From positions 10,315 through 74,314 of the forward strand of contig CAXYCJ010000003.1 in assembly GCA_964275585.1 (NCBI GenBank): a stretch of DNA of 64,000 nt. Direction: 5' to 3'. The translations under genes and the position numbers were made by a program. Positions 2,040-42,972 of this stretch are shown here, in pieces (position 1 is the first letter of the stretch; each line of letters starts with the position of its first letter). Source of the stretch: an uncultured SAR86 cluster bacterium (GTDB lineage: Bacteria; Pseudomonadota; Gammaproteobacteria; Magnimaribacterales; D2472). A model generated the notes under the pieces. That model was given only the letters and a program-made list of their open reading frames with translations. It was not told where the DNA came from and did not search any database.

Positions 2040-2885
2040 CTTTAGCTCCAATTTGCAATAAATTCTCGGCAATGTGTACTCCACATTCTTCTAGTTTTTT
2101 TATTTTGTCAGCTGCAGTCCCCTTGCCACCAGCAATAATTGCACCAGCGTGCCCCATTCTTTTGCCGGCAGGAGCCGTTTGCCCTGCTATGTATGAAACA
2201 ACTGGTTTGGTTACATGATCTCTGATAAATTCAGCTGCTTCTTCTTCAGCCGTTCCACCAATCTCACCCACCATTACAATTGCTTTAGTTTGCTCATCTG
2301 CTTCAAAGAGCTTTAATACATCAATAAAAGATGTTCCTGGGATCGGATCACCTCCAATACCCACGCATGTGCTTTGACCCAAGCCTAAATCAGTTGTTTG
2401 TTTTACCGCTTCGTAAGTTAATGTTCCAGATCTAGAAATAATACCTACCGAACCTGACAAATGAATGCTGCCTGGCATAATTCCAAGTTTAGCCTCTCCA
2501 GGGGTAATGACTCCGGGACAGTTTGGTCCAATTAACTGAATGCCTAGTTCATCTATACGTTTTTTTACAATAAGCATATCAAGAGTTGGCACACCTTCAG
2601 TGATACAAATAATTAATTTAATGCCGGCATCTGCTGCCTCTAAAATTGAGTCTTTGCAAAAAGGTGCAGGCACAAAAATAATTGAAGCATTTGGTTGAAC
2701 TGCTTCCATTGCATCATGAACAGAATTAAATACTGGAGCACCTAAGTGAGTTTGTCCACCTTTACCAGGTGTAACGCCGCCAACAATATTTGTTCCATAC
2801 TCAATTGATTGCTCTGAGTGTAATGTTGCTTGAGATCCTGTAAAACCTTGAACCAAAAGACGAGTATTTTTATTAACTAATATGC

Positions 2886-27847: not shown

Positions 27848-29278
27848 ATGTTTTTTAAATACCTTCTTTTTATATTATTTCTATTTTCTCAAAGCCTTCT
27901 TGCTCAGGCTGAAGACCTAAATTTACCTGATTTAGGTGATCGAGTATCCGGTGTAATATCTTTGGAACAAGAAAAAACTCTTGGGCAAAGTTTCTTAGAG
28001 CAAGTCTATGCTCAAGCTCCACTGATAAATGATCCAATAATCCAAGAATATACTGAATTACTAATTTACAGGCTCTCTGAAACCTCTGAGGTTGTTGATC
28101 GTGAATTTACGATTATTTTAATAGATGAAAAGTCATTAAATGCTTTTGCTGCTCCAGGAGGGGTGATTGGAGTAAACGGTGGATTATTTTTAAATGCAGA
28201 AAATGAGGCTCAGTTATCATCTGTTTTGGGGCATGAGTTGGCTCATCTCAGTCAACGACACTTTGCAAGAAATGTTCTAAGAGGAAGGGATACAAATTTA
28301 GCATCTTCATTAGTAATGGTTTCAGCCATTGCATTGGCAATTGTTGCAAACAATCCAACCGCATTCATTGCTGGACCAGCGGCCTTAGCTCAACAAAAAT
28401 TACGATATAGTCGAATCTTTGAAAGAGAGGCTGATCGATATGGATTTAATAACTTAATTGCTGCTGGCTATGATCCAGCTGGGATGGGTCAGATGTTTGA
28501 AAATATGGCTAAAATCAGGAAACTGTCTGGTGACAACCCACCTGAATTCCTACTCACACATCCAATTACTTCATCAAGAATTAGTGATGCATTTAATGCT
28601 GCAGATCAAATTGAATTTACAGGAGGAAAGAAAAATACAATTAATTTTGAATTTGTGAAAGGAAGGCTTAAGGCTAGATATTTATCATCATCACCTCAGG
28701 CTGATGTGAGGTATTTTAAAAAACTGTATGAAAGCACTCCAAGCAATGAAAATAAATATGCATATATTATAGCTCTTAAAAATAATGGTCAGTTCATAGA
28801 GGGGCTGAGCTTGATAGAGGAAGTGATAGAAAAATACCCAAAAAATTTAATCCTCAATACTACAAAAGCAGAGATCTTATTGTCTGGTCAGCAATTAGAC
28901 CAAGCAGATAAGTATATTGAAAAAGTGCTAAATATTTCTCCAGGAAATTACCCTGCTTCAATTGTGAAGTCAAAAATATTAAGCGCAAAAAAAGAAAGCA
29001 TTAGGTCTGAAGAAGTTATAAGAGATCTTTTAATAACTAAAAATCGTGATCCGAATTTGTGGATGCATTTATCAGAAATTCAAAGGGCTGGGAAAAATAT
29101 TGTTGGCTATCACTTGAGTCGGGGTGAGTACTATATGTTATTGGGTGATTTTAACAATGCTCTGAATCAATTTCAATTTGCACTGCGACTATCAGGGAAT
29201 TCATTTCAAACATCAGAAACTATTATGACTAAAATTAAATTTGTACAAGATAGGTTGGGTAAAAAAAGAGGTCTTTAA
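27848..29278 (+). CDS. bepA: periplasmic M48 metalloprotease/chaperone BepA (YfgC)
   Basis: 476 aa. Signal peptide, HELAHLSQRH zinc motif and a C-terminal TPR region. Confidence 0.88.
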   Translation: MFFKYLLFILFLFSQSLLAQAEDLNLPDLGDRVSGVISLEQEKTLGQSFLEQVYAQAPLINDPIIQEYTELLIYRLSETSEVVDREFTIILIDEKSLNAFAAPGGVIGVNGGLFLNAENEAQLSSVLGHELAHLSQRHFARNVLRGRDTNLASSLVMVSAIALAIVANNPTAFIAGPAALAQQKLRYSRIFEREADRYGFNNLIAAGYDPAGMGQMFENMAKIRKLSGDNPPEFLLTHPITSSRISDAFNAADQIEFTGGKKNTINFEFVKGRLKARYLSSSPQADVRYFKKLYESTPSNENKYAYIIALKNNGQFIEGLSLIEEVIEKYPKNLILNTTKAEILLSGQQLDQADKYIEKVLNISPGNYPASIVKSKILSAKKESIRSEEVIRDLLITKNRDPNLWMHLSEIQRAGKNIVGYHLSRGEYYMLLGDFNNALNQFQFALRLSGNSFQTSETIMTKIKFVQDRLGKKRGL

Positions 29279-30591
29279 GAAGCAATCTTTTCCTTTGGTG
29301 GAATTTTAAAACCTAGCAAAGCTACACATCCCGCAAAAGGTATTGCTAATAATGGTACCTGTGAGAATGCCACTCCAACTGATTTAGAAATTAAGATAAA
29401 GCCACTACCTGAAAAATCTCCTAAACGAACAAGAAATGTATCAACTAAAACAGATGATTTATAACGATCTACTTTCTTAAGGTAGCTAAATATTAACTCT
29501 CTGGTTGGCTTGTTAACACCATACTCAAATAGTCTTAAAATAATAGTTACAACAAAAACATACCCAATGGTAGGAGCCAAGAAATAACCAATAAAAACAC
29601 CTGTGAATAAAAATCCGTAGCTCATTAAAATATATTTAGGGCCCACAATACGCATTATTGCTGCTGTTAAAAAAAATTGAGTGAATAAGGTCAGGATTGT
29701 GACTGTCTGCTCTATCTGACTAAAGAAGATAATCCTATCACCTCCATCTGATGACCAAGCATTTACTATTTCAACCGATGTAATCCAATGAACTGTCATG
29801 AGAGCTGTCCAAAGATACATATAGAGACCAATAGAGCGAATTTGAGAAGATGAAATTAAATTTTTAATAGCATCAAAGCTTGATCCTCCAGGTGACTCAT
29901 TGATTCCCTCTAAATTGGAGAATCGCTTCATAAGACTAAGTCCTGCCATCAGTGCCAAAAAAAGAAAAACTATAGCAATCATTGTAAAAAAAACAATGCC
30001 CGATTCATTAAAAGTTGAGGCTAACTGTTTAGAAATTTCTGAGCCAAGATAGGCTCCCAAAGATCCTCCAGCAGCTATTACTCCATAAACATTTGCAGCA
30101 TTGCCTCCTCTGAACAGATTAATAATTACAACCCAAAATATAGAGACAACAAAAAAAGAATAAACGTTACACCAAATATAAAATATCTGACTTAGAGAAA
30201 TAGATGATGAGGGATCAAAGAATTGCCATTTATAGAATATCTGACTTAGAGAGATAGATGATGAGGGATCAAAGAATTGCAATAAAATAATAAACCCTAG
30301 TAAATTACTAATAAAAAAAGAATAGCAACCTATCAACACACCCCTTAAATTTTTTCTTGAAGCCAGCCATGAATAAACTGGGTTCAATAACAACATAACC
30401 AATGCACCGACCCCAAGCAGATATGGAAGAATTTCAGAATTTTGAACTGCCATCTCATTTCGTACTGGTCTTAAAATATACCAAGAGCATAAAACCAAGA
30501 AGAAGAAGAAACCTGCAAGAATTGATTCTTTTGTAAACGATAAAGTAATTCTCTTTATGGTTTGAGCAACGGAATTAGAAATTTTTTTCAT
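29275..30591 (-). CDS. MFS-type transporter, ATP:ADP antiporter (TLC)-like; substrate unknown
   Basis: 438 aa, about 11-12 TM. WYILRPVRNEMAV and IFYIWCNVYSFFVVSIFWVV..N resemble TLC/NTT-like carriers. Contains an 18-aa tandem duplication. Confidence 0.55.
   Translation of the reverse strand: MKKISNSVAQTIKRITLSFTKESILAGFFFFLVLCSWYILRPVRNEMAVQNSEILPYLLGVGALVMLLLNPVYSWLASRKNLRGVLIGCYSFFISNLLGFIILLQFFDPSSSISLSQIFYKWQFFDPSSSISLSQIFYIWCNVYSFFVVSIFWVVIINLFRGGNAANVYGVIAAGGSLGAYLGSEISKQLASTFNESGIVFFTMIAIVFLFLALMAGLSLMKRFSNLEGINESPGGSSFDAIKNLISSSQIRSIGLYMYLWTALMTVHWITSVEIVNAWSSDGGDRIIFFSQIEQTVTILTLFTQFFLTAAIMRIVGPKYILMSYGFLFTGVFIGYFLAPTIGYVFVVTIILRLFEYGVNKPTRELIFSYLKKVDRYKSSVLVDTFLVRLGDFSGSGFILISKSVGVAFSQVPLLAIPFAGCVALLGFKIPPKEKIAS
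30172..30279. repeat. 54-bp x 2 direct tandem duplication inside the transporter CDS (50/54 identical)
   Basis: Unit A (30172..30225) is ccaaatataaaatatctgacttagagaaatagatgatgagggatcaaagaattg. Unit B (30226..30279) is ccatttatagaatatctgacttagagagatagatgatgagggatcaaagaattg. They encode QFFDPSSSISLSQIFY(K/I)W twice, in frame. Confidence 0.95.
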
Positions 30592-30737: not shown

Positions 30738-31385
30738 TTATTCCATATTTGCCAATAACTGCAAGGCTTGCAAGGCTAAAGAGGAAGCATTACTATCTGG
30801 AAAAGTTTGAACAACAAACTGATATTTAATCTTCGCTGCACTAGTCTCATCAGACATCATAAAGATATCTCCAATCTTTTTATGAGCCAGTGGGGTCCTA
30901 AAGTGATCGGGGTAAACTACTGTCAGGGTTTGAAAAAAATCATTACTTTCAATCAAGCTAGATTCTTGTAAAGAAATTTCTCCTAACCAGAAGAGACTAA
31001 GAGGAATTTTTTCATCGTCATTAAAATTATTAACTAAATATATAAAAGATTTTTTTGCAGCTTGAGAATCATTGTTATCAAATAATGCTTTTTTTGCTTC
31101 TTTGTAAACCTCTTCAATGCTTTGGCTCTCATTAATGCCTTGGAACCTGAAAGTGCTCTCTTCCGCCATCACATTACTCTCAGACGAACTTAAGGTTTCT
31201 GATTGAACAGAGCCTTCGTTTAACAGTTTATCAATTAAGTAAGATTGTGATTCCAGCTCACTTCTTAGCGCAGCTAATTCTACCTCTAACTCCTGGATCT
31301 TTAAAAATAAGATGTCTGAAGCATCGCCCTCCTGAGCATCTACAAAAAAAGATGCAGAAATAAGTACTGCAAGAAGAAATCTCAT
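30738..31385 (-). CDS. cpoB: cell division coordinator CpoB (YbgF), short form
   Basis: 215 aa. Signal peptide, coiled coil (LKIQELEVELAALRSELESQ) and a TPR-like C-terminus. Last gene of the tol-pal cluster. Confidence 0.8.
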   Translation of the reverse strand: MRFLLAVLISASFFVDAQEGDASDILFLKIQELEVELAALRSELESQSYLIDKLLNEGSVQSETLSSSESNVMAEESTFRFQGINESQSIEEVYKEAKKALFDNNDSQAAKKSFIYLVNNFNDDEKIPLSLFWLGEISLQESSLIESNDFFQTLTVVYPDHFRTPLAHKKIGDIFMMSDETSAAKIKYQFVVQTFPDSNASSLALQALQLLANME

Positions 31386-31396
31386 TTGATAAAAAA

Positions 31397-31873
31397 TTAT
31401 TTAATTTCTACTCTTCTATTTTTTGACCAGGAGGTATCATTTGAGCCTAGAGATAAAGGCCTCTCTTCGCCATAGCTTTTCGTAATTATGCTATTTCTTT
31501 TAATACCGTTAGCCATTAGATAATTTGCAACGGACTCAGATCGTCTTTGACCCAGTGCTAGATTGTACTCTCTTGTACCCCTTTCATCGGCATGACCCTC
31601 AAGAGTAATAGTGATATTAGGATTTTTTTTCATCAACTCTACTACCCCTTTTAACGCTTGAATTGATCTGCTTGTTAGATTAAATTCATCATATGCAAAA
31701 TAAACTACAGCATTCGCAAGAACTGCTTGGCTGGACATAGATTTTGGGGTAAGGCTCACTCCGGAAACACTTTGATCTGCAACAGATTCTTCGGTTACTT
31801 GAAGAGAGCTACAGGCAGAAAATAGCACCAAAACAGCTAACGAAAAGAAAGTGTTATTAAATTTATTCATCAT
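31397..31873 (-). CDS. pal: peptidoglycan-associated lipoprotein Pal
   Basis: 158 aa. Lipobox LFSACSS and an OmpA-like domain (LEGHADERGTREYNLALGQRRSESV..NRRVEI). Confidence 0.95.
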   Translation of the reverse strand: MMNKFNNTFFSLAVLVLFSACSSLQVTEESVADQSVSGVSLTPKSMSSQAVLANAVVYFAYDEFNLTSRSIQALKGVVELMKKNPNITITLEGHADERGTREYNLALGQRRSESVANYLMANGIKRNSIITKSYGEERPLSLGSNDTSWSKNRRVEIK

Positions 31874-31891
31874 ATTTACACCTATTTAAGA

Positions 31892-33178
31892 TTATCTTAA
31901 GAAATTAGACCAAGCAGGTTCTCTTACTTCACCTTTTGATGCTGGTAATTTAAACCTTGCTCCACTAAGGCTAAATCCTGCAAGCATACTTAAGTCTTTT
32001 TCCTTAATTCCATAGATTACCATATTACCATTGGGAGCAACACTAGGAGATTCGTCCATTTTTGCCTCTGTCAATATTCTAATAAAATTTTCTTTTTTAT
32101 ATTTTAAAGCGATGTGAAATAAACCGTCTTCAGATCTATGGACAAAAATGATCCCCTCTTCCTTAGGAAGATATGAAGCCTTAGCATTGTAACTGCCCTC
32201 AAAAGAAATGCGCCGAGCTTTAGGGTTTAATTTCCTAAGGTTTAATTCATATATTTGAGGAGAGCCAGATCTTCCGCTAGTAAATAGTATTTTATTGCCT
32301 TTGGGTGACCATGAAGACTCTGTATCAATTGCAAACTGATTAGTCATTCTTGTTAAAACTCTATCATGAAGACGTAAGATATAAATTTCTGCATTGCCAT
32401 CTTGATATAATGTTAAAGAAAGATATTTTCCATCTGGCGACCACGAGGGTGAGCTTATTTGCGTCTCTTTTGAAAGAACTGACTCCCTCTCACCTGAGGC
32501 AATGTCTTGGATAAAGACTTTTGCAATGCCCGTTTCGAAAGAAACATAAGCAACCTTTCTGCTATCAGGCGACCAAGCAGGAGAGATAATCGGCTCTGGA
32601 CTAGCTAGAAGAACTTTTTCATTTTCGCCATCGGCGTCGGCTAACATTAAGTTATAACGTGATTCCGGCTTGGATGACTTAATTTCATTTACATAGAGTA
32701 ACCTTGTAGATGCAATGCCCTTAATTCCGGTGATTGATTCATAAATTCCATCACTAGTATAGTGCCCAAGCTGCCTGAGCTGATCAGGAATACCAAATAC
32801 TTTTGAGTTGCGTATCTTCTTCTTTTTTAAAATATCATAAATTTCATAATTTACATCTACAAAATTCTTCTCTTGGATCACAGATCCAGTAACGAGATAA
32901 TCCATACCTAATATCTTCCAGTCACTATAATTTATCTCTTCATCTACAATTTTAAGTGGTGATAAGAGTTCTTTATCAAGGATAAAAAATTCACCTGTGC
33001 GCCTAAGATCGTTTGAAATAATGTTATGTAATTTTTTAGAATCTATCCTATTGCCTTCAAAAGGTATCATTGCGATTTTATAGGGATCTTCAGAACCTTT
33101 GGTGATTTCTAAAAAGAGCTCTCCGAAACACAGTGAAGACAAAAATAAAAATATTGATATGAAAGATTTTTGAATCAT
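31892..33178 (-). CDS. tolB: Tol-Pal system beta-propeller protein TolB
   Basis: 428 aa. Signal peptide and repeated SP.WSPDG blades (SPAWSPDSRKVAYVS, SPSWSPDGKYLS, SWSPKGNKILFTS). Confidence 0.95.
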   Translation of the reverse strand: MIQKSFISIFLFLSSLCFGELFLEITKGSEDPYKIAMIPFEGNRIDSKKLHNIISNDLRRTGEFFILDKELLSPLKIVDEEINYSDWKILGMDYLVTGSVIQEKNFVDVNYEIYDILKKKKIRNSKVFGIPDQLRQLGHYTSDGIYESITGIKGIASTRLLYVNEIKSSKPESRYNLMLADADGENEKVLLASPEPIISPAWSPDSRKVAYVSFETGIAKVFIQDIASGERESVLSKETQISSPSWSPDGKYLSLTLYQDGNAEIYILRLHDRVLTRMTNQFAIDTESSWSPKGNKILFTSGRSGSPQIYELNLRKLNPKARRISFEGSYNAKASYLPKEEGIIFVHRSEDGLFHIALKYKKENFIRILTEAKMDESPSVAPNGNMVIYGIKEKDLSMLAGFSLSGARFKLPASKGEVREPAWSNFLR

Positions 33179-33807
33179 GAAGGATTAAAGCTAATGGCAA
33201 TTATTTTAAATTCTTTTTCATATAAATCCTTTGAAAGAGCATTAAAAAAATTAAATGTCTCCACCCTTCTAACTGCTTGAAGAGCAGAATTATCAAATCT
33301 AATATTTCCACTACTCATAATTAAATTCACTTTTTCTATTCGGCCCGAAGACTTAATAAATAGCCTAAGGTTTGCAACTAAATCACTAGGTATATTTCTG
33401 GGCTTCATCCAAGCACCCTCTATAGTTTTAATAATATTTTGAGAGATTATTGCAATTTCTTGTTCCTCTTTGGTTGTCTCAACATCTACTTCTTGCTCCA
33501 ATAGAACAGATATATCAGATTGTAATAATAATTTTTGTGGCTTAGTTAAGATAGAAGGTGTGACTAGAGTCGTTTCAGTTACTATTTGATTCTGATTGAC
33601 TGATGAGCTCTGCTTCACTGGTATGATATTTTTTCTCTTCTCAACTTTGATATCAGATTCAAATTTAAGTTGGACCTGCAAAGGCTTAGATAATAAAATT
33701 CTTTCTAATGTATTGGTATCGAAGGTTCCATATAGATATAGGAATATTGCTGCATGAGTACAAAATGAAAATAAAGAAGCATGTAAGTATCGAGAATTAG
33801 CTATCAT
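33175..33807 (-). CDS. tolA: Tol-Pal system protein TolA (short)
   Basis: 210 aa. N-terminal TM, a linker, and a C-terminal TolA/TonB-like domain. Position between tolR and tolB. Confidence 0.75.
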   Translation of the reverse strand: MIANSRYLHASLFSFCTHAAIFLYLYGTFDTNTLERILLSKPLQVQLKFESDIKVEKRKNIIPVKQSSSVNQNQIVTETTLVTPSILTKPQKLLLQSDISVLLEQEVDVETTKEEQEIAIISQNIIKTIEGAWMKPRNIPSDLVANLRLFIKSSGRIEKVNLIMSSGNIRFDNSALQAVRRVETFNFFNALSKDLYEKEFKIIAISFNPS

Positions 33808-34219
33808 AGCCAGTGGTTATAATGCCAACTTTCTGAATACCTAAACTTTGGATACTTGCCATCCCCTTAGCAACAAAATTAAATGGAACATTTGCATCAC
33901 TCTTAAAAACAATTTCAATGTCAGGGTTTGCTTGGTAGATAATATTAGCTTTATTTTTTAATTCCCTCAGAGAGATTGGTAATTCTTCCTCTCCAAGATT
34001 AAGAAAATATTTACCGGTACTATCAATTGATATAACCAAAGGCTCACTAGAAATAGACATTTTAGTGGTATCAGTTGTTGGAAGATCAACCTCAATTCCT
34101 TGGATTAATAATGGTGATAAAACCATAAAGATAATCAATAGCACCAGCATGACATCAATGTATGGCACTACATTAATTTCAGCATTTAATTTTTTTCTTT
34201 TACCAATTCGATATATCAA
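33797..34219 (-). CDS. tolR: Tol-Pal system protein TolR (ExbD family)
   Basis: 140 aa. INVVPYIDVMLVLLIIFMV ExbD/TolR signature. Confidence 0.92.
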   Translation of the reverse strand: MIYRIGKRKKLNAEINVVPYIDVMLVLLIIFMVLSPLLIQGIEVDLPTTDTTKMSISSEPLVISIDSTGKYFLNLGEEELPISLRELKNKANIIYQANPDIEIVFKSDANVPFNFVAKGMASIQSLGIQKVGIITTGYDS

Positions 34220-34896
34220 AGCTTTGTTTTAACTGTTTGTCTGTAAAGTATACTTGCTAGCTCTTCGCCAAATACTGAAGATTGTTGAAGTTGAGAGTCT
34301 GATTCGGAGGCAAATTTATTGTATGCAACAACTGCCGGAATTGCTGCAAATAAACCAAGTGCAGTTGCAACCAGGGCTTCTGAAATACCTGGGGCAACAG
34401 CATTAATAGTTGCTTGCGTAGCATCTGAAAGACCTTGGAATGAATTAATAATGCCCCACACTGTTCCAAACAGCCCAACATAGGGGCTAACTGAACCAAC
34501 GTTAGCAAGGAAAGGAAGATGGTGCATCAATGATTCTTCCTCTCGTGCCAAAGAAACACGAATCGCACGATTAACACTCTCTAAGTCCTCAATTGTGATT
34601 TTCTGACCATCTCCTAGTCTTAAAAATTCATTAAACCCATGCTTGAAAACACTAAGGGAGCCAACCAGCTTCTCTCGAGGAATATCTTTTATACTATCAT
34701 GCAGTTCACTTAAGTCCTTGCCAGACCAAAATTGCTCTTCGAAAGAAGAGTTAGCTGCTTTGATTCTATTTAAATTAAAATATCTTTCAAAAATTACTAT
34801 CCAGGATACAACAGAAATAATTATTAAAATAACCATGACAGCTTGAACTATAAAACTAGCTTGAAGGAATAAATCTATTACAGAAAAGTCATTCAT
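34216..34896 (-). CDS. tolQ: Tol-Pal system protein TolQ (MotA/ExbB family)
   Basis: 226 aa. LANVGSVSPYVGLFGTVWGIINSF and APGISEALVATALGLFAAIPAV motifs. Confidence 0.93.
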   Translation of the reverse strand: MNDFSVIDLFLQASFIVQAVMVILIIISVVSWIVIFERYFNLNRIKAANSSFEEQFWSGKDLSELHDSIKDIPREKLVGSLSVFKHGFNEFLRLGDGQKITIEDLESVNRAIRVSLAREEESLMHHLPFLANVGSVSPYVGLFGTVWGIINSFQGLSDATQATINAVAPGISEALVATALGLFAAIPAVVAYNKFASESDSQLQQSSVFGEELASILYRQTVKTKL

Positions 34897-34902
34897 TATG
34901 TT

Positions 34903-35322
34903 CTACCTAAATAAATCTAATAGTTTTTGTGGAAAAGCTTTTGGCTTACCTATATCTCTTCTAAGGTAGCATACCTCAACGATTCCATCGCAAATGAGTG
35001 TATCATTTTTTAATCTCAAAGCAGATTGAAAAAATTTTATACGGGCTTTGCTAATAAGCTCAACCTCACTTTTTATTACCAGCTGATCATCTAACTTCGC
35101 TGAGTTACGATAGTTTAAAATAATTGACTTAACTATATAAGTCTCTTTATTAAGCAATGCATCTACTTGGGAAAGCTTATGATCTATAAGAAACTGAGAT
35201 CTTGCTCTCTCAAAATATTTTAAATAATTTGCATGGTATACAACCCCTTGAAAATCTGTGTCTTCAATAAAAACCTTGCAAAGAAAGTCCTTACACTTGA
35301 AAAGTTGATTCATGTTGCTCAA
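34903..35322 (-). CDS. ybgC: tol-pal associated acyl-CoA thioesterase YbgC (4HBT fold)
   Basis: 139 aa. VFIEDTDFQGVVYHANYLKYFERAR hot-dog thioesterase motif. The start may be the second Met (35313). Confidence 0.88.
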   Translation of the reverse strand: MSNMNQLFKCKDFLCKVFIEDTDFQGVVYHANYLKYFERARSQFLIDHKLSQVDALLNKETYIVKSIILNYRNSAKLDDQLVIKSEVELISKARIKFFQSALRLKNDTLICDGIVEVCYLRRDIGKPKAFPQKLLDLFR

Positions 35323-35713
35323 TATCTACTTGAAAAAGGTGCCTAAGAATTTCAACAAAGTCTTCCCACATCAAATCAATTGTCATAGGTGAAAATTCAA
35401 GCTCAGATGATAATGCTCCAGCTAAAATTCTTACTTTGATTGGACGACGATTAAATTTATACACTAAGGCTGGAAAGCCACCCTCGGCGGTAGCTGCTAA
35501 AACTTGATCCCACCATTCAGAAGATGGTTCAGCTCCATCGCCATACCTTTTGCATTCAATGCACCATCTTCCAAGTTTCAAATCTGGTAATTCTTTCGTG
35601 CGAGTTTGCTCTAATATCCTCTTCACGGGCTGTTTTAAATCTAACTGTTCCATCAATAAGTTACCAATTTCTCTTTCAAAATTAGCACCTTTTGTTCTAG
35701 AATTAATTGCCAA
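35291..35713 (-). CDS. PD-(D/E)XK nuclease, Hjc-like putative Holliday-junction resolvase
   Basis: 140 aa. TTG start 2 nt after the yebC stop; 3' end overlaps ybgC. Motif set: K8-G-ANFERE15, P43-D44-L and C-I-E53-C-K55, then GFPALVYKFNRRPIKV. This is the ordered E..D..ExK core and the N-terminal KGxxxER typical of archaeal Hjc-type resolvases. Confidence 0.6.
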   Translation of the reverse strand: MAINSRTKGANFEREIGNLLMEQLDLKQPVKRILEQTRTKELPDLKLGRWCIECKRYGDGAEPSSEWWDQVLAATAEGGFPALVYKFNRRPIKVRILAGALSSELEFSPMTIDLMWEDFVEILRHLFQVDIEQHESTFQV

Positions 35714-35715
35714 AA

Positions 35716-36453
35716 CTACTCCTCAACTTCAAAACTATCAGGGAATTCTGCATTAGTATGAACTTCTTGAACATCATCTAAATCATCCATAAAATCCATG
35801 ATCTTTAATACTTTTTCAGCTTCTTCTTGATCCAGGTGAATAAGGGTTTCGGCTCTCATGGTTACTTCAGTATTCAAGGTCTCAACTGCTTTAGCCTTTA
35901 ATGCCTCAGCAACGATGGAAAGGTTTGAAGGAGCTGTGATCACTTCATAGAAATCATCTATAACAGTAAAATCTTCAGCACCTGCATCAAGTACAATTTC
36001 CATAATTAAGTCTTCACTATGAGATGTTGAGACATGGATAACTCCTAATTTATTAAACAGGTAGGCAACTGAACCATCTGTGCCCATGTTGCCACCAAAT
36101 TTAGAAAAAGCATGGCGTACATCTGCTACTGTCCTATTTCTATTATCTGTCATAGTTTCAACTAGAATAGCAACTCCGTTTGGTCCATATCCCTCAAAAG
36201 TAAGCTCTTCAATGATTCCCATCTCCCCTGTACCAGAACCTTTTTGAATGGCTCTTTTAATTGTATCTTTTGGCATATTAGCTGCATTAGCTTTATCCAA
36301 GGCTAATCTTAACCTTGGGTTATCATCAGGATCTGGTCCGCCCTTAGCAGCAACTGTAATTTCTCTTATAACTTTTGTCCAAACTTTTCCTCTGGAAGCA
36401 TCTTGTCTTGCTTTTCTGTGCTTAATGTTTGCCCATTTAGAGTGACCTGCCAT
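35716..36453 (-). CDS. yebC: YebC/PmpR family transcriptional regulator
   Basis: 245 aa. MAGHSKWANIKHRKARQDASRGK signature. Confidence 0.95.
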   Translation of the reverse strand: MAGHSKWANIKHRKARQDASRGKVWTKVIREITVAAKGGPDPDDNPRLRLALDKANAANMPKDTIKRAIQKGSGTGEMGIIEELTFEGYGPNGVAILVETMTDNRNRTVADVRHAFSKFGGNMGTDGSVAYLFNKLGVIHVSTSHSEDLIMEIVLDAGAEDFTVIDDFYEVITAPSNLSIVAEALKAKAVETLNTEVTMRAETLIHLDQEEAEKVLKIMDFMDDLDDVQEVHTNAEFPDSFEVEE

Positions 36454-36456
36454 TAT

Positions 36457-38220
36457 TTAGTCCTTCTCAACAATTGATTGAATATGAATCTCCTCTAATT
36501 GCTTCTTATCAATCGCTCCAGGGGCATCAGTCAATAAGCATGAAGCGCTTTGTGTTTTTGGAAATGCAATAACATCCCTAATATTAGTTGTATTGGATAA
36601 GAGCATAGCGATTCTATCTAAACCAAAAGCAATACCTCCATGAGGCGGACAGCCTGATGACAAGGCTGCCAATAAAAAACCAAATTTTTTCTCAGCTTCG
36701 TGAGATGGGATTCCTAAGATATTAAAAATTTCACTTTGCATAATTGGATCATGAACTCTTAAAGAGCCTCCTCCTAACTCATAACCATTTAAAACAAAAT
36801 CATAGGCGCAGGCCAAAGACTCATCTGGGTTAGCTGTTAATTGTTCTAAAGTAACAGCTGGAAGGGTAAAGGGGTGATGCAATGAAGTAAGGTTATTTTC
36901 TTTATTCCTTTCAAACATTGGGAAATCAATAACCCAACATGGAGCCCATTCAGAAACATTTAATTTTAAGTCTTCTCCTAATTTTTTTATTAAAGAGCTC
37001 ATTGATAAATTCACAATATTTGCATTACCAGCACCAAAGAAAATCATGTCATCATTTTTAACTTTTAGGGCAGAAGTAATCGAATCAATGGTCTCTTGCT
37101 GAAGAAACTTTAAAATTGGCGATTGCAATCCATTTTCTTCACCTAATGCTACTACCTTTATGTAAGCAAGTCCTTTGGCTCCTAACGTTCCTACAAAATC
37201 CGTATATTCATCAATTTTCTTTCTAGTCAGAACTGCTGCACCTGGAACTCGCAATGCCACAACTCTTGCAGCTGGATCGTTTGCAGGACCAGAAAAAACT
37301 TTAAATTCTTCATGCTTAACTAATGCAGAGATGTCCTCTAGCTTTAGTGGAATTCTAAGATCTGGCTTATCACAACCATATTGAGCAATTGCATCTTTGT
37401 ATGTAATGCGGGGTATTTCAGCGACTTCGTAATTTGTAAACTCTGATAAAAGTGAAGTAATCAGTTCCTCACCCAGATTCATAATATCCTCGGTATTGAT
37501 AAAAGAAGCTTCAATATCTACTTGAGTAAATTCTGGCTGTCTATCTGCGCGAAGATCCTCATCCCTAAAACATCTAGCAATTTGATAATACTTATCAAGG
37601 CCACCAATCATCAACAGTTGTTTAAAAAGCTGCGGTGATTGAGGCAAAGCAAAAAAATCGCCTGGATGAACTCGACTAGGAACCAAGTAATCACGAGCAC
37701 CCTCAGGAGTGGCTCTGGTTAAAATAGGTGTTTCTATTTCATTATAATTATTGACCTCCAAAACAGATCTAATCTTAGAAGTAATTTTTGCTCTCTTTAT
37801 CAACCTTGCGCTTACTTCAGGGCGCCTTAAATCAAGAAATCTATTTTTTAATCTAATATCCTCACTAACCTCCTGGTACTCATCTAAGGGAAATTTTGGA
37901 GTATCTGCTTTGCTGTAAATCAATAAATGTTTTGCTTCAATTTCAATTTCTCCTGTTTCCATTTTGGGATTAATAGCTCCTTCAATTCTAGGTATGACCG
38001 AGCCTTTAACATTGACAACAAATTCACTCCTGCATGAGTCAGCTAAATCAAAGACTTCCTTAGAAGCAGGATTAAAGACTACCTGAACAATCCCATGTAG
38101 ATCTCTAATGTCTAAAAATATTACTCCGCCATGATCTCGTCTTTTATGTACCCAACCAGATATTTCAATGTCTTTTCCAATATCTAAGCTTGTAATATCT
38201 CCGCAATAATGTGATCGCAT
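36457..38220 (-). CDS. aspS: aspartate--tRNA ligase
   Basis: Start set at MRSHYCGDI (E. coli MRTEYCGQL, from memory). Motifs FFALPQSPQLFKQLLM, RCFRDEDLRADRQPEFTQ and GGIAFGLDR. Confidence 0.95.
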   Translation of the reverse strand: MRSHYCGDITSLDIGKDIEISGWVHKRRDHGGVIFLDIRDLHGIVQVVFNPASKEVFDLADSCRSEFVVNVKGSVIPRIEGAINPKMETGEIEIEAKHLLIYSKADTPKFPLDEYQEVSEDIRLKNRFLDLRRPEVSARLIKRAKITSKIRSVLEVNNYNEIETPILTRATPEGARDYLVPSRVHPGDFFALPQSPQLFKQLLMIGGLDKYYQIARCFRDEDLRADRQPEFTQVDIEASFINTEDIMNLGEELITSLLSEFTNYEVAEIPRITYKDAIAQYGCDKPDLRIPLKLEDISALVKHEEFKVFSGPANDPAARVVALRVPGAAVLTRKKIDEYTDFVGTLGAKGLAYIKVVALGEENGLQSPILKFLQQETIDSITSALKVKNDDMIFFGAGNANIVNLSMSSLIKKLGEDLKLNVSEWAPCWVIDFPMFERNKENNLTSLHHPFTLPAVTLEQLTANPDESLACAYDFVLNGYELGGGSLRVHDPIMQSEIFNILGIPSHEAEKKFGFLLAALSSGCPPHGGIAFGLDRIAMLLSNTTNIRDVIAFPKTQSASCLLTDAPGAIDKKQLEEIHIQSIVEKD

Positions 38221-38224
38221 GCTT

Positions 38225-38521
38225 TTAACTTTCTTCATTAGGCTTCTTTTTTAAAATTTTTGATGTACCGGTAGTTTTTTTAGTTTCTTTAGGCGTATCT
38301 GACTTATGCTCCTTATTGTCTACTATATTCTTTTTAGCACCAGTTTTAAAATCAGTTTCATACCACCCGCCGCCCTTTAATCTAAATGAAGGAGCAGATA
38401 CTAGTTTTTGTAGAGATTTTTCATTGCATTCTGGGCAAGTTTTAATAGGGTTATCAGAAAATTTTTGAATTATTTCTAATTGATGCCCGCATTTCGAGCA
38501 TTTATAATCATAAATAGGCAT
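38225..38521 (-). CDS. FmdB-family zinc-ribbon protein with Lys-rich tail
   Basis: 98 aa. MPIYDYKCSKCGH..CPECN double CxxC knuckle. Confidence 0.8.
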   Translation of the reverse strand: MPIYDYKCSKCGHQLEIIQKFSDNPIKTCPECNEKSLQKLVSAPSFRLKGGGWYETDFKTGAKKNIVDNKEHKSDTPKETKKTTGTSKILKKKPNEES

Positions 38522-41964: not shown

Positions 41965-42972
41965 TTACTTCTTAGCAGTCTTATTAACTGATGGAATATA
42001 AGCTGTTCTTATTTCTTTGACTAAAGCATCCCTTATCTTAGTATTTTCTTTTAAAAACTTGCTAGCATTTACCTTTCCTTGGCCAATCTTCTCACCATTA
42101 TGGCTATACCATGAGCCTGATTTTTCAATTAGGTCAAGTTTTTGTCCTAATTCTAAGATCTCACCTTCAGTATTAATGCCCTCTCCATACATAATCTGAA
42201 ATTCAGCTTGCTTAAATGGAGGTGATACTTTATTTTTTACCACTTTAACGCGAGTTTCATTTCCAACAACCTCCTCTCCCTCTTTTACCGCACCAATACG
42301 TCTAATATCTAATCGAACAGATGAGTAGAATTTTAGAGCATTGCCTCCTGTGGTTGTTTCAGGATTTCCAAACATCACACCAATCTTCATTCGAATTTGA
42401 TTTATAAATATAACCATTGCATTAGATCGTTGAATATTCCCAGTAATTTTTCTTAAAGCTTGTGACATTAATCTTGCTTGCAGACCCATATGATGATCGC
42501 CCATATCGCCTTCAATTTCAGCTCTTGGAGTCAATGCTGCAACTGAATCAATAACTATTAAATCAACACTTCCGGATTTAACTAACATATCAGTGACCTC
42601 TAAGGCTTGTTCTCCTGTATCTGGCTGCGAAAGGAGAAGCTCATCAACATTAACGCCAAGCTTTTGAGCATAATTAGGATCTAAGGCATGCTCAGCATCA
42701 ATAAATGCTGCTGTGCCACCTGCTTTTTGGCACTCTGCAATAGCCTGTAATGTAAGGGTAGTTTTACCAGAAGACTCTGGTCCAAAAATTTCAACTACTC
42801 TTCCCTGTGGCAAGCCGCCAATACCTAAGGCAATATCAAGCCCTATTGATCCAGATGATATTGAGGGCATATCAACAATTTCTCTATCCCCCATCTTCAT
42901 AACAGTTCCCTTTCCAAACTGTTTTTCAATCTGAGACAGTGTCTCGTTTAGGTTTTTTTCTTTGTCTGACAT
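41965..42972 (-). CDS. recA: recombinase RecA
   Basis: 335 aa. [12 protein letters not shown] Walker [10 protein letters not shown] and [16 protein letters not shown]. Confidence 0.98.

Follow-up and report, generated by a model that had tools for sequence, protein, structure and literature searches.

Which protein cuts Holliday junctions in a bacterium whose ruvC-ruvA-ruvB operon appears to be gone? This question is raised by a locus of an uncultured SAR86 cluster bacterium (order Magnimaribacterales), found on contig CAXYCJ010000003.1 of assembly GCA_964275585.1, of which a stretch of 64,000 nucleotides, referred to here as the window, was analyzed. SAR86 is among the most abundant bacterial groups of the surface ocean. 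RuvA and RuvB are, to our knowledge, near-universal in bacteria, and both belong to the marker genes commonly used in bacterial phylogenomics. In the window, the place of the operon between yebC and ybgC is taken by a single small gene, annotated as hypothetical protein, whose product belongs to the PD-(D/E)XK nucleases. We consider it probable (roughly 70%) that this domesticated phage nuclease is a Hjc-like dimer that serves as the Holliday-junction resolvase of SAR86, a non-orthologous, in-place replacement of ruvCAB.

The position of the gene was compared with that of the ruv genes in other bacteria. Escherichia coli shows the order aspS-nudB-yebC-ruvC...ruvA-ruvB, and all four Pseudomonas loci that reach tolQ (L018, L047, L065, and L068) show aspS-yebC-ruvC-ruvA-ruvB-ybgC-tolQ, in agreement with the synteny that an earlier, sequence-only reading of this DNA had given for these bacteria. 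A sample of 80 yebC-anchored, mostly gammaproteobacterial loci was collected via the HSKWANIK pattern of YebC and annotated by tblastn with E. coli RuvA, RuvB, and RuvC (NC_000913) and with the window proteins; the pattern is generic, and the sample is thus a broad background in which SAR86 and a related lineage are represented by a single locus each. ruvC directly follows yebC in 70 of the 80 loci, and the complete string yebC-ruvC-ruvA-ruvB-(ybgC)-tolQ is present in 52 of the 80, with aspS just upstream in 40 of these 52. The arrangement yebC-PDDEXK_15-ybgC-tolQ, denoted here after the family of the nuclease, was encountered twice (2/80), in a SAR86 single-cell genome (L001) and in SZUA-1006 (L026), a deeper, AT-rich relative that has the entire proS/Zn-ribbon/aspS...tolB synteny in common with the window. 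All six SAR86-type lineages sampled (the window, L001, L093-096, L102/103, L104/105, and L026) carry yebC-PDDEXK_15-ybgC-tolQRAB. Further SAR86 orthologue contigs, namely JGI contigs of 1.10 and 1.14 Mb and those of two NCBI assemblies, display the same arrangement, and orthologous loci annotated with Pfam read aspS-yebC-PDDEXK_15-ybgC-tolQ-tolR-tolA-tolB-pal. The nuclease gene thus occupies the ancestral ruvC-ruvA-ruvB slot, as the sequence-only reading had proposed; the frequency of the yebC-ruvC linkage makes this argument a general one, and conservation at the yebC/ybgC junction, which that reading had named as a check, extends to every SAR86 lineage sampled.

The linkage is common, not universal, in Gammaproteobacteria, since four Acinetobacter loci (L056, L066, L067, and L076) show no ruvC after yebC within the fetched stretch. 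In a metagenome-assembled genome of Methylococcaceae (L039; DAOUSJ010000038.1, 8720..8771), yebC is followed by ybgC-tolQ, with neither ruvCAB nor PDDEXK_15 between them; judging from the gene order, the ruv genes of this bacterium have apparently moved or been lost without replacement at the locus. As the slot of L039 is empty of either gene set, an empty slot alone is no proof of genome-wide loss.

For SAR86, data on the whole genome are in print. Within the window, tblastn with E. coli RuvA, RuvB, and RuvC yielded no match at E <= 0.01. The closed genome of a SAR86 isolate, strain HIMB1674, lacks 28 markers, and for 27 of these 28 the absence is systematic across 732 environmental SAR86 genomes as well (Ramfelt et al., 2024, ISME J 18:wrae227, PMC11582366, Table S1). 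The missing markers include PF01330 and PF07499 (N- and C-terminal domains of RuvA), PF05491 (C-terminal domain of RuvB), and PF02075 (RuvC), and, in the part of Table S1 covered here, the ruv markers score 0 in all but a few of the 47 genome columns (PMC11582366). Instead of an intact ruvCAB elsewhere in the genome, which the sequence-only reading had named as evidence against a displacement, the table thus records RuvA_N, RuvA_C, RuvB_C, and RuvC as missing in the closed isolate genome and systematically so in the 732 environmental ones. Markers for RecF, RecO, and RecR are present in SAR86 (PMC11582366, Table S1). The words Ruv, Holliday junctions, and resolvase do not occur in the main text of that article, and no literature pairing SAR86 with ruvB was found. 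The earlier claim that the arrangement had not been described therefore holds in part: the absence of RuvABC from SAR86 is already published, and no substitute is named there, so that it is the replacement that appears to be unnamed.

Several other factors are missing as well. RadA, RecN, MutS (domains I and II), MutL, Rep helicase, YbaB/EbfC, ClpB, and RF3 are absent from the closed genome and, in the part of Table S1 covered here, from nearly all 47 columns (PMC11582366). The repair and recombination toolkit of SAR86 is accordingly very reduced, which may be linked to the resolvase swap. In the same part of the table, a few columns denoted as "putative SAR86" are Ruv-positive (GCA_001627995.1, GCA_002400575.1, and GCA_002402175.1; PMC11582366): one of these three genomes has RuvA and RuvC without RuvB_C, one has RuvB_C only, and the third has the full set along with the majority of the remaining "missing" markers. 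These genomes may be misclassified or contaminated bins, or they may represent lineages that kept ruvCAB; in the latter case they would help to date the swap.

The loss of RuvA and RuvB concerns the branch-migration motor in addition to the nuclease, and here two versions of the replacement have to be weighed. The more far-reaching one, that SAR86/Magnimaribacterales are devoid of any RuvAB-type or RadA motor and that a single phage-derived Hjc-like dimer would constitute the entire resolvasome, is given slightly less than even odds. It is also conceivable, if doubtful, that the resolvase replaces RuvC only and that a motor (a divergent RuvAB, another translocase or, as the likeliest case, RecG) escaped the marker hidden Markov models (HMMs), in which case the situation would resemble that of RuvAB with RecU in Firmicutes. 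Each CheckM marker is one Pfam domain with a fixed cut-off, and the marker list shown contains RuvB_C but not RuvB_N. RecG lies outside the marker set of Table S1, and RecG is what RusA, a prophage resolvase, needs to suppress ruv mutants of E. coli (PMC10956419). A motor overlooked in this way is harder to reconcile with the joint absence of both RuvA domains, RuvB_C, and RuvC from the closed genome and, as far as the table is covered here, nearly all 47 columns, with the absence of RadA, another branch-migration helicase (PMC11582366), and with the locus itself, where the ruvA-ruvB slot is gone and no spare DNA is left.

The nuclease that fills the slot was assigned to a family by profile searches. 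It matches PF24608 (PDDEXK_15, "Phage putative PDDEXK endonuclease") over residues 4-97 with 30.0 bits, the gathering cut-off being 27 (E = 5.8e-7), and phrog_244 with E = 1.6e-11. Among diverse family members, 47 of 47 match PF24608 (best E 1.7e-19), the other Pfam matches being two stray ones of single members. Searches of NCBIfam, PADLOC, and, with the single sequence, the PDB gave no match for the window protein. No restriction, Vsr, or defense family was matched in Pfam, NCBIfam, or PADLOC, and the locus, in which yebC and ybgC flank the gene, offers no methylase as a partner; the profile searches that the sequence-only reading had called for hence lead to PF24608 and away from such families. 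A search of a 5.8-billion-protein collection retrieved 472 homologues, of which the best 120 share 65-100% identity, are nearly all 139-142 amino acids (aa) long, and carry, where named, the names SAR86 or Gammaproteobacteria. The family profile matched 606 clusters among 1.84 billion cluster representatives. In an alignment of the 47 members (24-70% identity), G9, E13, R32, D44, E53, and K55 are invariant and R6, K8, Q36, W67, W68, Q70, and P81 nearly so; the PD-(D/E)XK catalytic set E13, D44, E53, and K55 is hence conserved in 47/47. A Pfam cut-off passed, 472 homologues, and an invariant catalytic set show that the open reading frame (ORF) is not a chance one. The Pfam Hjc family (PF01870) was matched neither by the window protein at E <= 1 nor by the 47 relatives at E <= 0.01. 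The protein therefore belongs to the phage family PF24608; with Hjc it shares a remote homology, and it stands outside the Hjc Pfam family.

All other sampled members of PF24608/phrog_244 lie on phage-sized contigs (<=60 kb) in replication/recombination modules, from which the SAR86 clade differs as a chromosomal, single-copy, syntenic core gene. The nearest relatives outside SAR86 reach at most ~41-42% identity, and all those sampled are located on phage-like contigs. Some are accompanied by a DUF3799 exonuclease and a VapE primase, some by ERF and a DnaB-primase, and others by lysozyme, tail, or terminase genes; in annotated phages, the relatives are found among genes for Cas4-type exonuclease, Sak4 annealase, SSB, RNase H, ligase, and primase-helicase. 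With the SAR86 sequences left out, a family profile retrieved 667 clusters, and the best 120 of these 667 are all on contigs of <=60.5 kb, five of them being named "Holliday junction resolvase" by JGI. SAR86 copies, among the matches listed, reside on contigs of up to 1.29 Mb. The simplest history suggested by these sequences would be one ancient capture of a recombination nuclease from a marine phage, followed by its fixation as a core gene. In phages of Providencia, Klebsiella, and Stenotrophomonas, members of PF24608 bear the label "RusA-like Holliday junction resolvase" (L086 5001..5453, L088 5001..5465, and others). This label of phrog_244 is a propagating misnomer, since the predicted fold is PD-(D/E)XK/Hjc-like and not that of RusA.

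The relationship to the archaeal resolvases Hjc and Hje is apparent at several levels. A search of all PDB sequences with the 47-member profile gave 10 matches, of which eight were Hjc/Hje with the motifs in register (E from 0.012 to 0.98, best match 1gef), and hhalign against a small Hjc profile returned a probability of 96.4% over 87 columns. Hjc/Hje (PF01870; 1gef, 2wcw, 1hh1, and 1ob8) and the window protein have a common PD-(D/E)XK core, a similar size (~120-140 aa), and an N-terminal [KR]-K-G-x3-E-R helix, followed by D and then by E-x-K. The motifs pointed out in the sequence-only reading are all located at the residues given there, namely K8-G9-A10-N11-F12-E13-R14-E15, P43-D44-L45, I52-E53-C54-K55, and G79-FPALVYKF-N-RRP91. 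The distribution differs: Hjc/Hje are archaeal, whereas PF24608 is confined to phages and a single order of bacteria, with no archaeal members.

A structure was modeled with AlphaFold2 on the 47-sequence family alignment. The model shows an alpha-beta PD-(D/E)XK fold with a predicted local distance difference test score (pLDDT) of 92 and a predicted template modeling score of 0.87, all five models exceeding 90. A shallower alignment of 22 close SAR86 sequences gave a confident model in one case out of five, without a Foldseek match at E <= 0.001, and was set aside. With the family-based model, Foldseek against the PDB placed Hjc/Hje at positions 1-17, followed by the restriction enzyme entry 3ndh. 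The Hjc/Hje matches have probabilities of 0.66-1.00 (>=0.92 for the first 14) and a best E of 5e-4 (2wcw), yet template modeling (TM) scores of only 0.45-0.60 and root mean square deviations of 4-7 A; TM scores were 0.53/0.60 for 1gef and 0.52/0.58 for 1ob9. Against BFVD, a collection of predicted viral structures, the top match (TM 0.81) is unnamed, and several weaker ones carry the names Holliday junction resolvase, Hjc, or RecU/PrfA. RecU (PF03838) had no Pfam match and was absent from the profile-versus-PDB matches and from the top 50 Foldseek matches of the 47-sequence model; it was seen only as a weak match with the early low-confidence model. RusA likewise had no Pfam match, and the predicted fold resembles that of Hjc instead.

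In Hjc of Pyrococcus furiosus, the residues E9, R10, R25, D33, E46, K48, and K81 are essential (PMC10956419). According to the profile-versus-PDB and hhalign alignments, they correspond to E13, R14, R32, D44, E53, K55, and K86 of the window protein. These seven residues are invariant in 22/22 SAR86 orthologues; among the phage members, R14 and K86 are not always kept. By analogy, they are proposed to be the catalytic and DNA-binding residues. Of the initial designation as Hjc-type nuclease, the PD-(D/E)XK assignment and the kinship with Hjc/Hje as closest solved relatives are borne out by profile, hhalign, and Foldseek, including the fold comparison that the sequence-only reading had suggested, and the family name has to be changed to the phage family PF24608/phrog_244.

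A number of observations weigh against a function as resolvase. Hjc has no counterpart of the helices at the C-terminus of the window protein (residues 116-137) or of its W67-W68-x-Q70 motif, and the Hjc match is remote, as seen from the missing Pfam Hjc match, the TM scores of 0.45-0.60, and a PDB sequence E of 0.012 at best. The PD-(D/E)XK fold is known to support many other activities. A biochemical characterization of PF24608/phrog_244 members was not found in the searchable literature, where neither PF24608 nor PDDEXK_15 had a match. SAR86 has kept YqgF/RuvX (PF03652), which could in principle cut junctions (PMC11582366, Table S1). The absence of RuvABC, moreover, is read from the genomes of Table S1, including the closed one, and the nuclease gene from the window and the sampled SAR86 contigs.

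These observations would fit a domesticated phage PD-(D/E)XK nuclease with another core task, e.g. on stalled or reversed forks, flaps, branched DNA, damaged or foreign DNA, or RNA. Junctions would then be removed by YqgF/RuvX or by dissolution with a helicase and a topoisomerase, or double junctions would be avoided. The versatility of the fold, the retention of YqgF/RuvX, the label "Restriction endonuclease" that one orthologue bears in UniRef, and the restriction enzyme 3ndh as first Foldseek entry after Hjc can all be cited for such a role, and in a cell from which so many repair factors (RadA, RecN, MutS, MutL, and Rep) have been lost, the resolution of junctions may matter little. Nevertheless, we regard another core task as unlikely: all seven residues essential in Hjc are conserved, including those for DNA binding, the 17 closest solved structures are junction resolvases throughout, and the phage relatives belong to recombination modules. 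A defense role is disfavored by the lack of a PADLOC match and of a methylase partner at the locus, and the exact positional replacement of ruvCAB would be an otherwise unexplained coincidence.

That the gene is of use to the cell is indicated by its pattern of change. Between the window and L001, the proportion of nonsynonymous differences (pN) in the nuclease gene is 0.075 and that of synonymous differences (pS) 0.77, a value at which synonymous sites are saturated, so that pN/pS is ~0.1. The neighbors all have a higher pN in this comparison (AspS 0.134, YebC 0.098, TolQ 0.110, and TolB 0.120). Compared with the deepest lineage, L026, the nuclease shows 57% identity, AspS and YebC 55% each, TolQ 50%, and TolB 43%. 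Purifying selection acts on the nuclease gene with the same strength as on its housekeeping neighbors, and its GC content of 37.4% equals theirs.

The borders of the gene are equally tight. The yebC stop codon TAG (35716-35718) is separated from the TTG start of the nuclease gene by 2 nt (35714-35715), and a GAGGAG Shine-Dalgarno sequence within the end of yebC precedes this TTG with a spacing of 5 nt, which implies that the nuclease gene is translationally coupled to yebC. At its 3' end, the overlap with ybgC measures 32 nt for a ybgC start at TTG 35322 and 23 nt for one at ATG 35313. The ORF list and the sequence thus agree with the earlier description of a 140-aa ORF starting 2 nt past yebC and overlapping ybgC by 23-32 nt, and the GAGGAG motif and the overlaps favor the view, put forward with it, that the gene is embedded in, and probably co-translated with, the aspS-yebC...tol string. 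A selfish or decaying prophage remnant that was inserted by chance between yebC and ybgC and has no cellular role, an idea to which the phage-borne remainder of the family might lead, is extremely improbable and effectively refuted by the conservation data, given an unvarying position across all SAR86 lineages sampled without other phage genes nearby, a pN/pS of ~0.1 and a protein more conserved than AspS, YebC, and TolQ, the coupling to yebC and overlap with ybgC, and a fully ameliorated GC content.

For the favored resolvase function, the following course of events is conceived. An ancestor of the SAR86 order (Magnimaribacterales) would have acquired the phage nuclease, which replaced ruvC-ruvA-ruvB between yebC and ybgC. 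RecA is the strand-exchange protein that makes Holliday junctions in E. coli; since recA is present in the window, junction intermediates in need of processing are expected. The nuclease, as a homodimer, would attach to the four-way junction that RecA has formed, and each active site (E13, D44, E53, and K55 with Mg2+) would nick one of the two strands of like polarity, with R14, R32, and K86 contacting the DNA; the nicks of Hjc itself are placed near the crossover, 3 nt to its 3' side (PMC10956419). DNA ligase would then seal the nicked duplexes. Without RuvAB (and RadA), the junction might migrate spontaneously, driven by RecA, or by means of RecG, if SAR86 has RecG. Dimerization, junction specificity, the role in vivo, and the source of branch migration are inferred here by analogy. 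The mechanism is made plausible by two precedents: archaeal Hjc restores repair in E. coli without RuvC, and RusA suppresses ruvA, ruvB, and ruvC mutants of E. coli when RecG is present (PMC10956419). The displacement of RuvABC by a non-orthologous gene, which the sequence-only reading had put forward, is supported by the synteny of the slot and the published absence of RuvABC, and the junction-resolving activity is suggested by analogy.

Two known systems invite comparison. RecU of Firmicutes and Mollicutes is likewise an Hjc-related PD-(D/E)XK resolvase that replaces RuvC non-orthologously across a lineage. RecU is not located at the ruvC locus; moreover, lineages with RecU keep RuvAB, with which RecU works, whereas SAR86 is without the RuvA and RuvB markers. 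RusA (cryptic prophage DLP12; rus-1 suppressor) is likewise a small phage-derived resolvase and is dimeric, whereas a dimer is only proposed for the window protein. RusA alone offsets the loss of RuvA, RuvB, or RuvC if RecG is present (PMC10956419), and is in this respect a laboratory analogue of the apparent swap in SAR86. The fold of RusA is unrelated and there is no sequence relationship to the window protein. RusA of E. coli is a silent prophage gene switched on by mutation, whereas the SAR86 gene is a fixed core gene in the place of the operon. What is new is thus the combination: a natural, lineage-wide, in-place swap of three ruv genes for a phage-derived Hjc-like nuclease in a dominant free-living marine order.

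The features of the locus are collected in Table 1. The gene order in the window is proS, Zn-ribbon-aspS-yebC-nuclease-ybgC-tolQ-tolR-tolA-tolB-pal-cpoB, with recA ~6 kb upstream, and the remainder of the 64-kb window is ordinary housekeeping chromosome. A scan of the operon for promoters and terminators gave none above the shuffled background and no signals at the borders of the nuclease ORF.

Table 1. Coordinates of the nuclease gene and its surroundings (positions in the window).
Feature	Position	Strand	Characteristics	Evidence
PDDEXK_15 nuclease gene	35291..35713	minus	140 aa, TTG start	ORF list and sequence; PF24608 and PHROG matches
GAGGAG Shine-Dalgarno	35719..35724	minus	last two sense codons of yebC	read from sequence
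yebC (TACO1/YebC family)	35716..36453	minus	54% identity to E. coli YebC	Pfam PF01709/PF20772
ybgC (4HBT thioesterase)	34903..35322	minus	first gene of the tol-pal cluster	ORF and Pfam
aspS	36457..38238	minus		ORF and tblastn; orthologous gene Pfam-annotated
tolQ-tolR-tolA-tolB-pal-cpoB	30738..34896	minus		ORFs; tolQ by tblastn; orthologous loci Pfam-annotated
recA	41965..42972	minus	97% identity in L001	ORF; orthologue with RecA_N/RecA_C

The Zn-ribbon gene directly upstream of aspS belongs to the FmdB family (PF09723; 38225..38521, minus strand) and overlaps the aspS start. It is kept at this position in every SAR86-type locus with listed genes upstream of aspS, the copy of L026 being located at 2321..2605. 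Downstream of the tol-pal genes, a 54-bp tandem duplication (30177..30280, 1.9 copies, 96% identical) lies inside an ORF (29275..30591, minus strand) for a 438-aa membrane protein without Pfam match, in which it repeats 18 aa (…FFDPSSSISLSQIFY[KI]W…). The counterpart gene in L093 encodes 414 aa; the duplication may be either a genuine insertion peculiar to this strain or an artefact of assembly.

If the nuclease is indeed the resolvase of SAR86, this would explain how Holliday junctions are handled in a RecA-positive, free-living, and very abundant bacterium, and it would provide the uncharacterized phage family PF24608/phrog_244 with a testable function. It would also be an unusually clean case of non-orthologous displacement, in which a phage gene takes the exact slot and the translational coupling of the operon that it replaced. 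Should the single nuclease make up the entire resolvasome, SAR86 would represent a free-living bacterial order with junction resolution of archaeal/phage style, a natural counterpart of the RusA suppressor experiment. The finding bears on how recombination, which shapes the population structure of SAR86, runs with a minimal toolkit.

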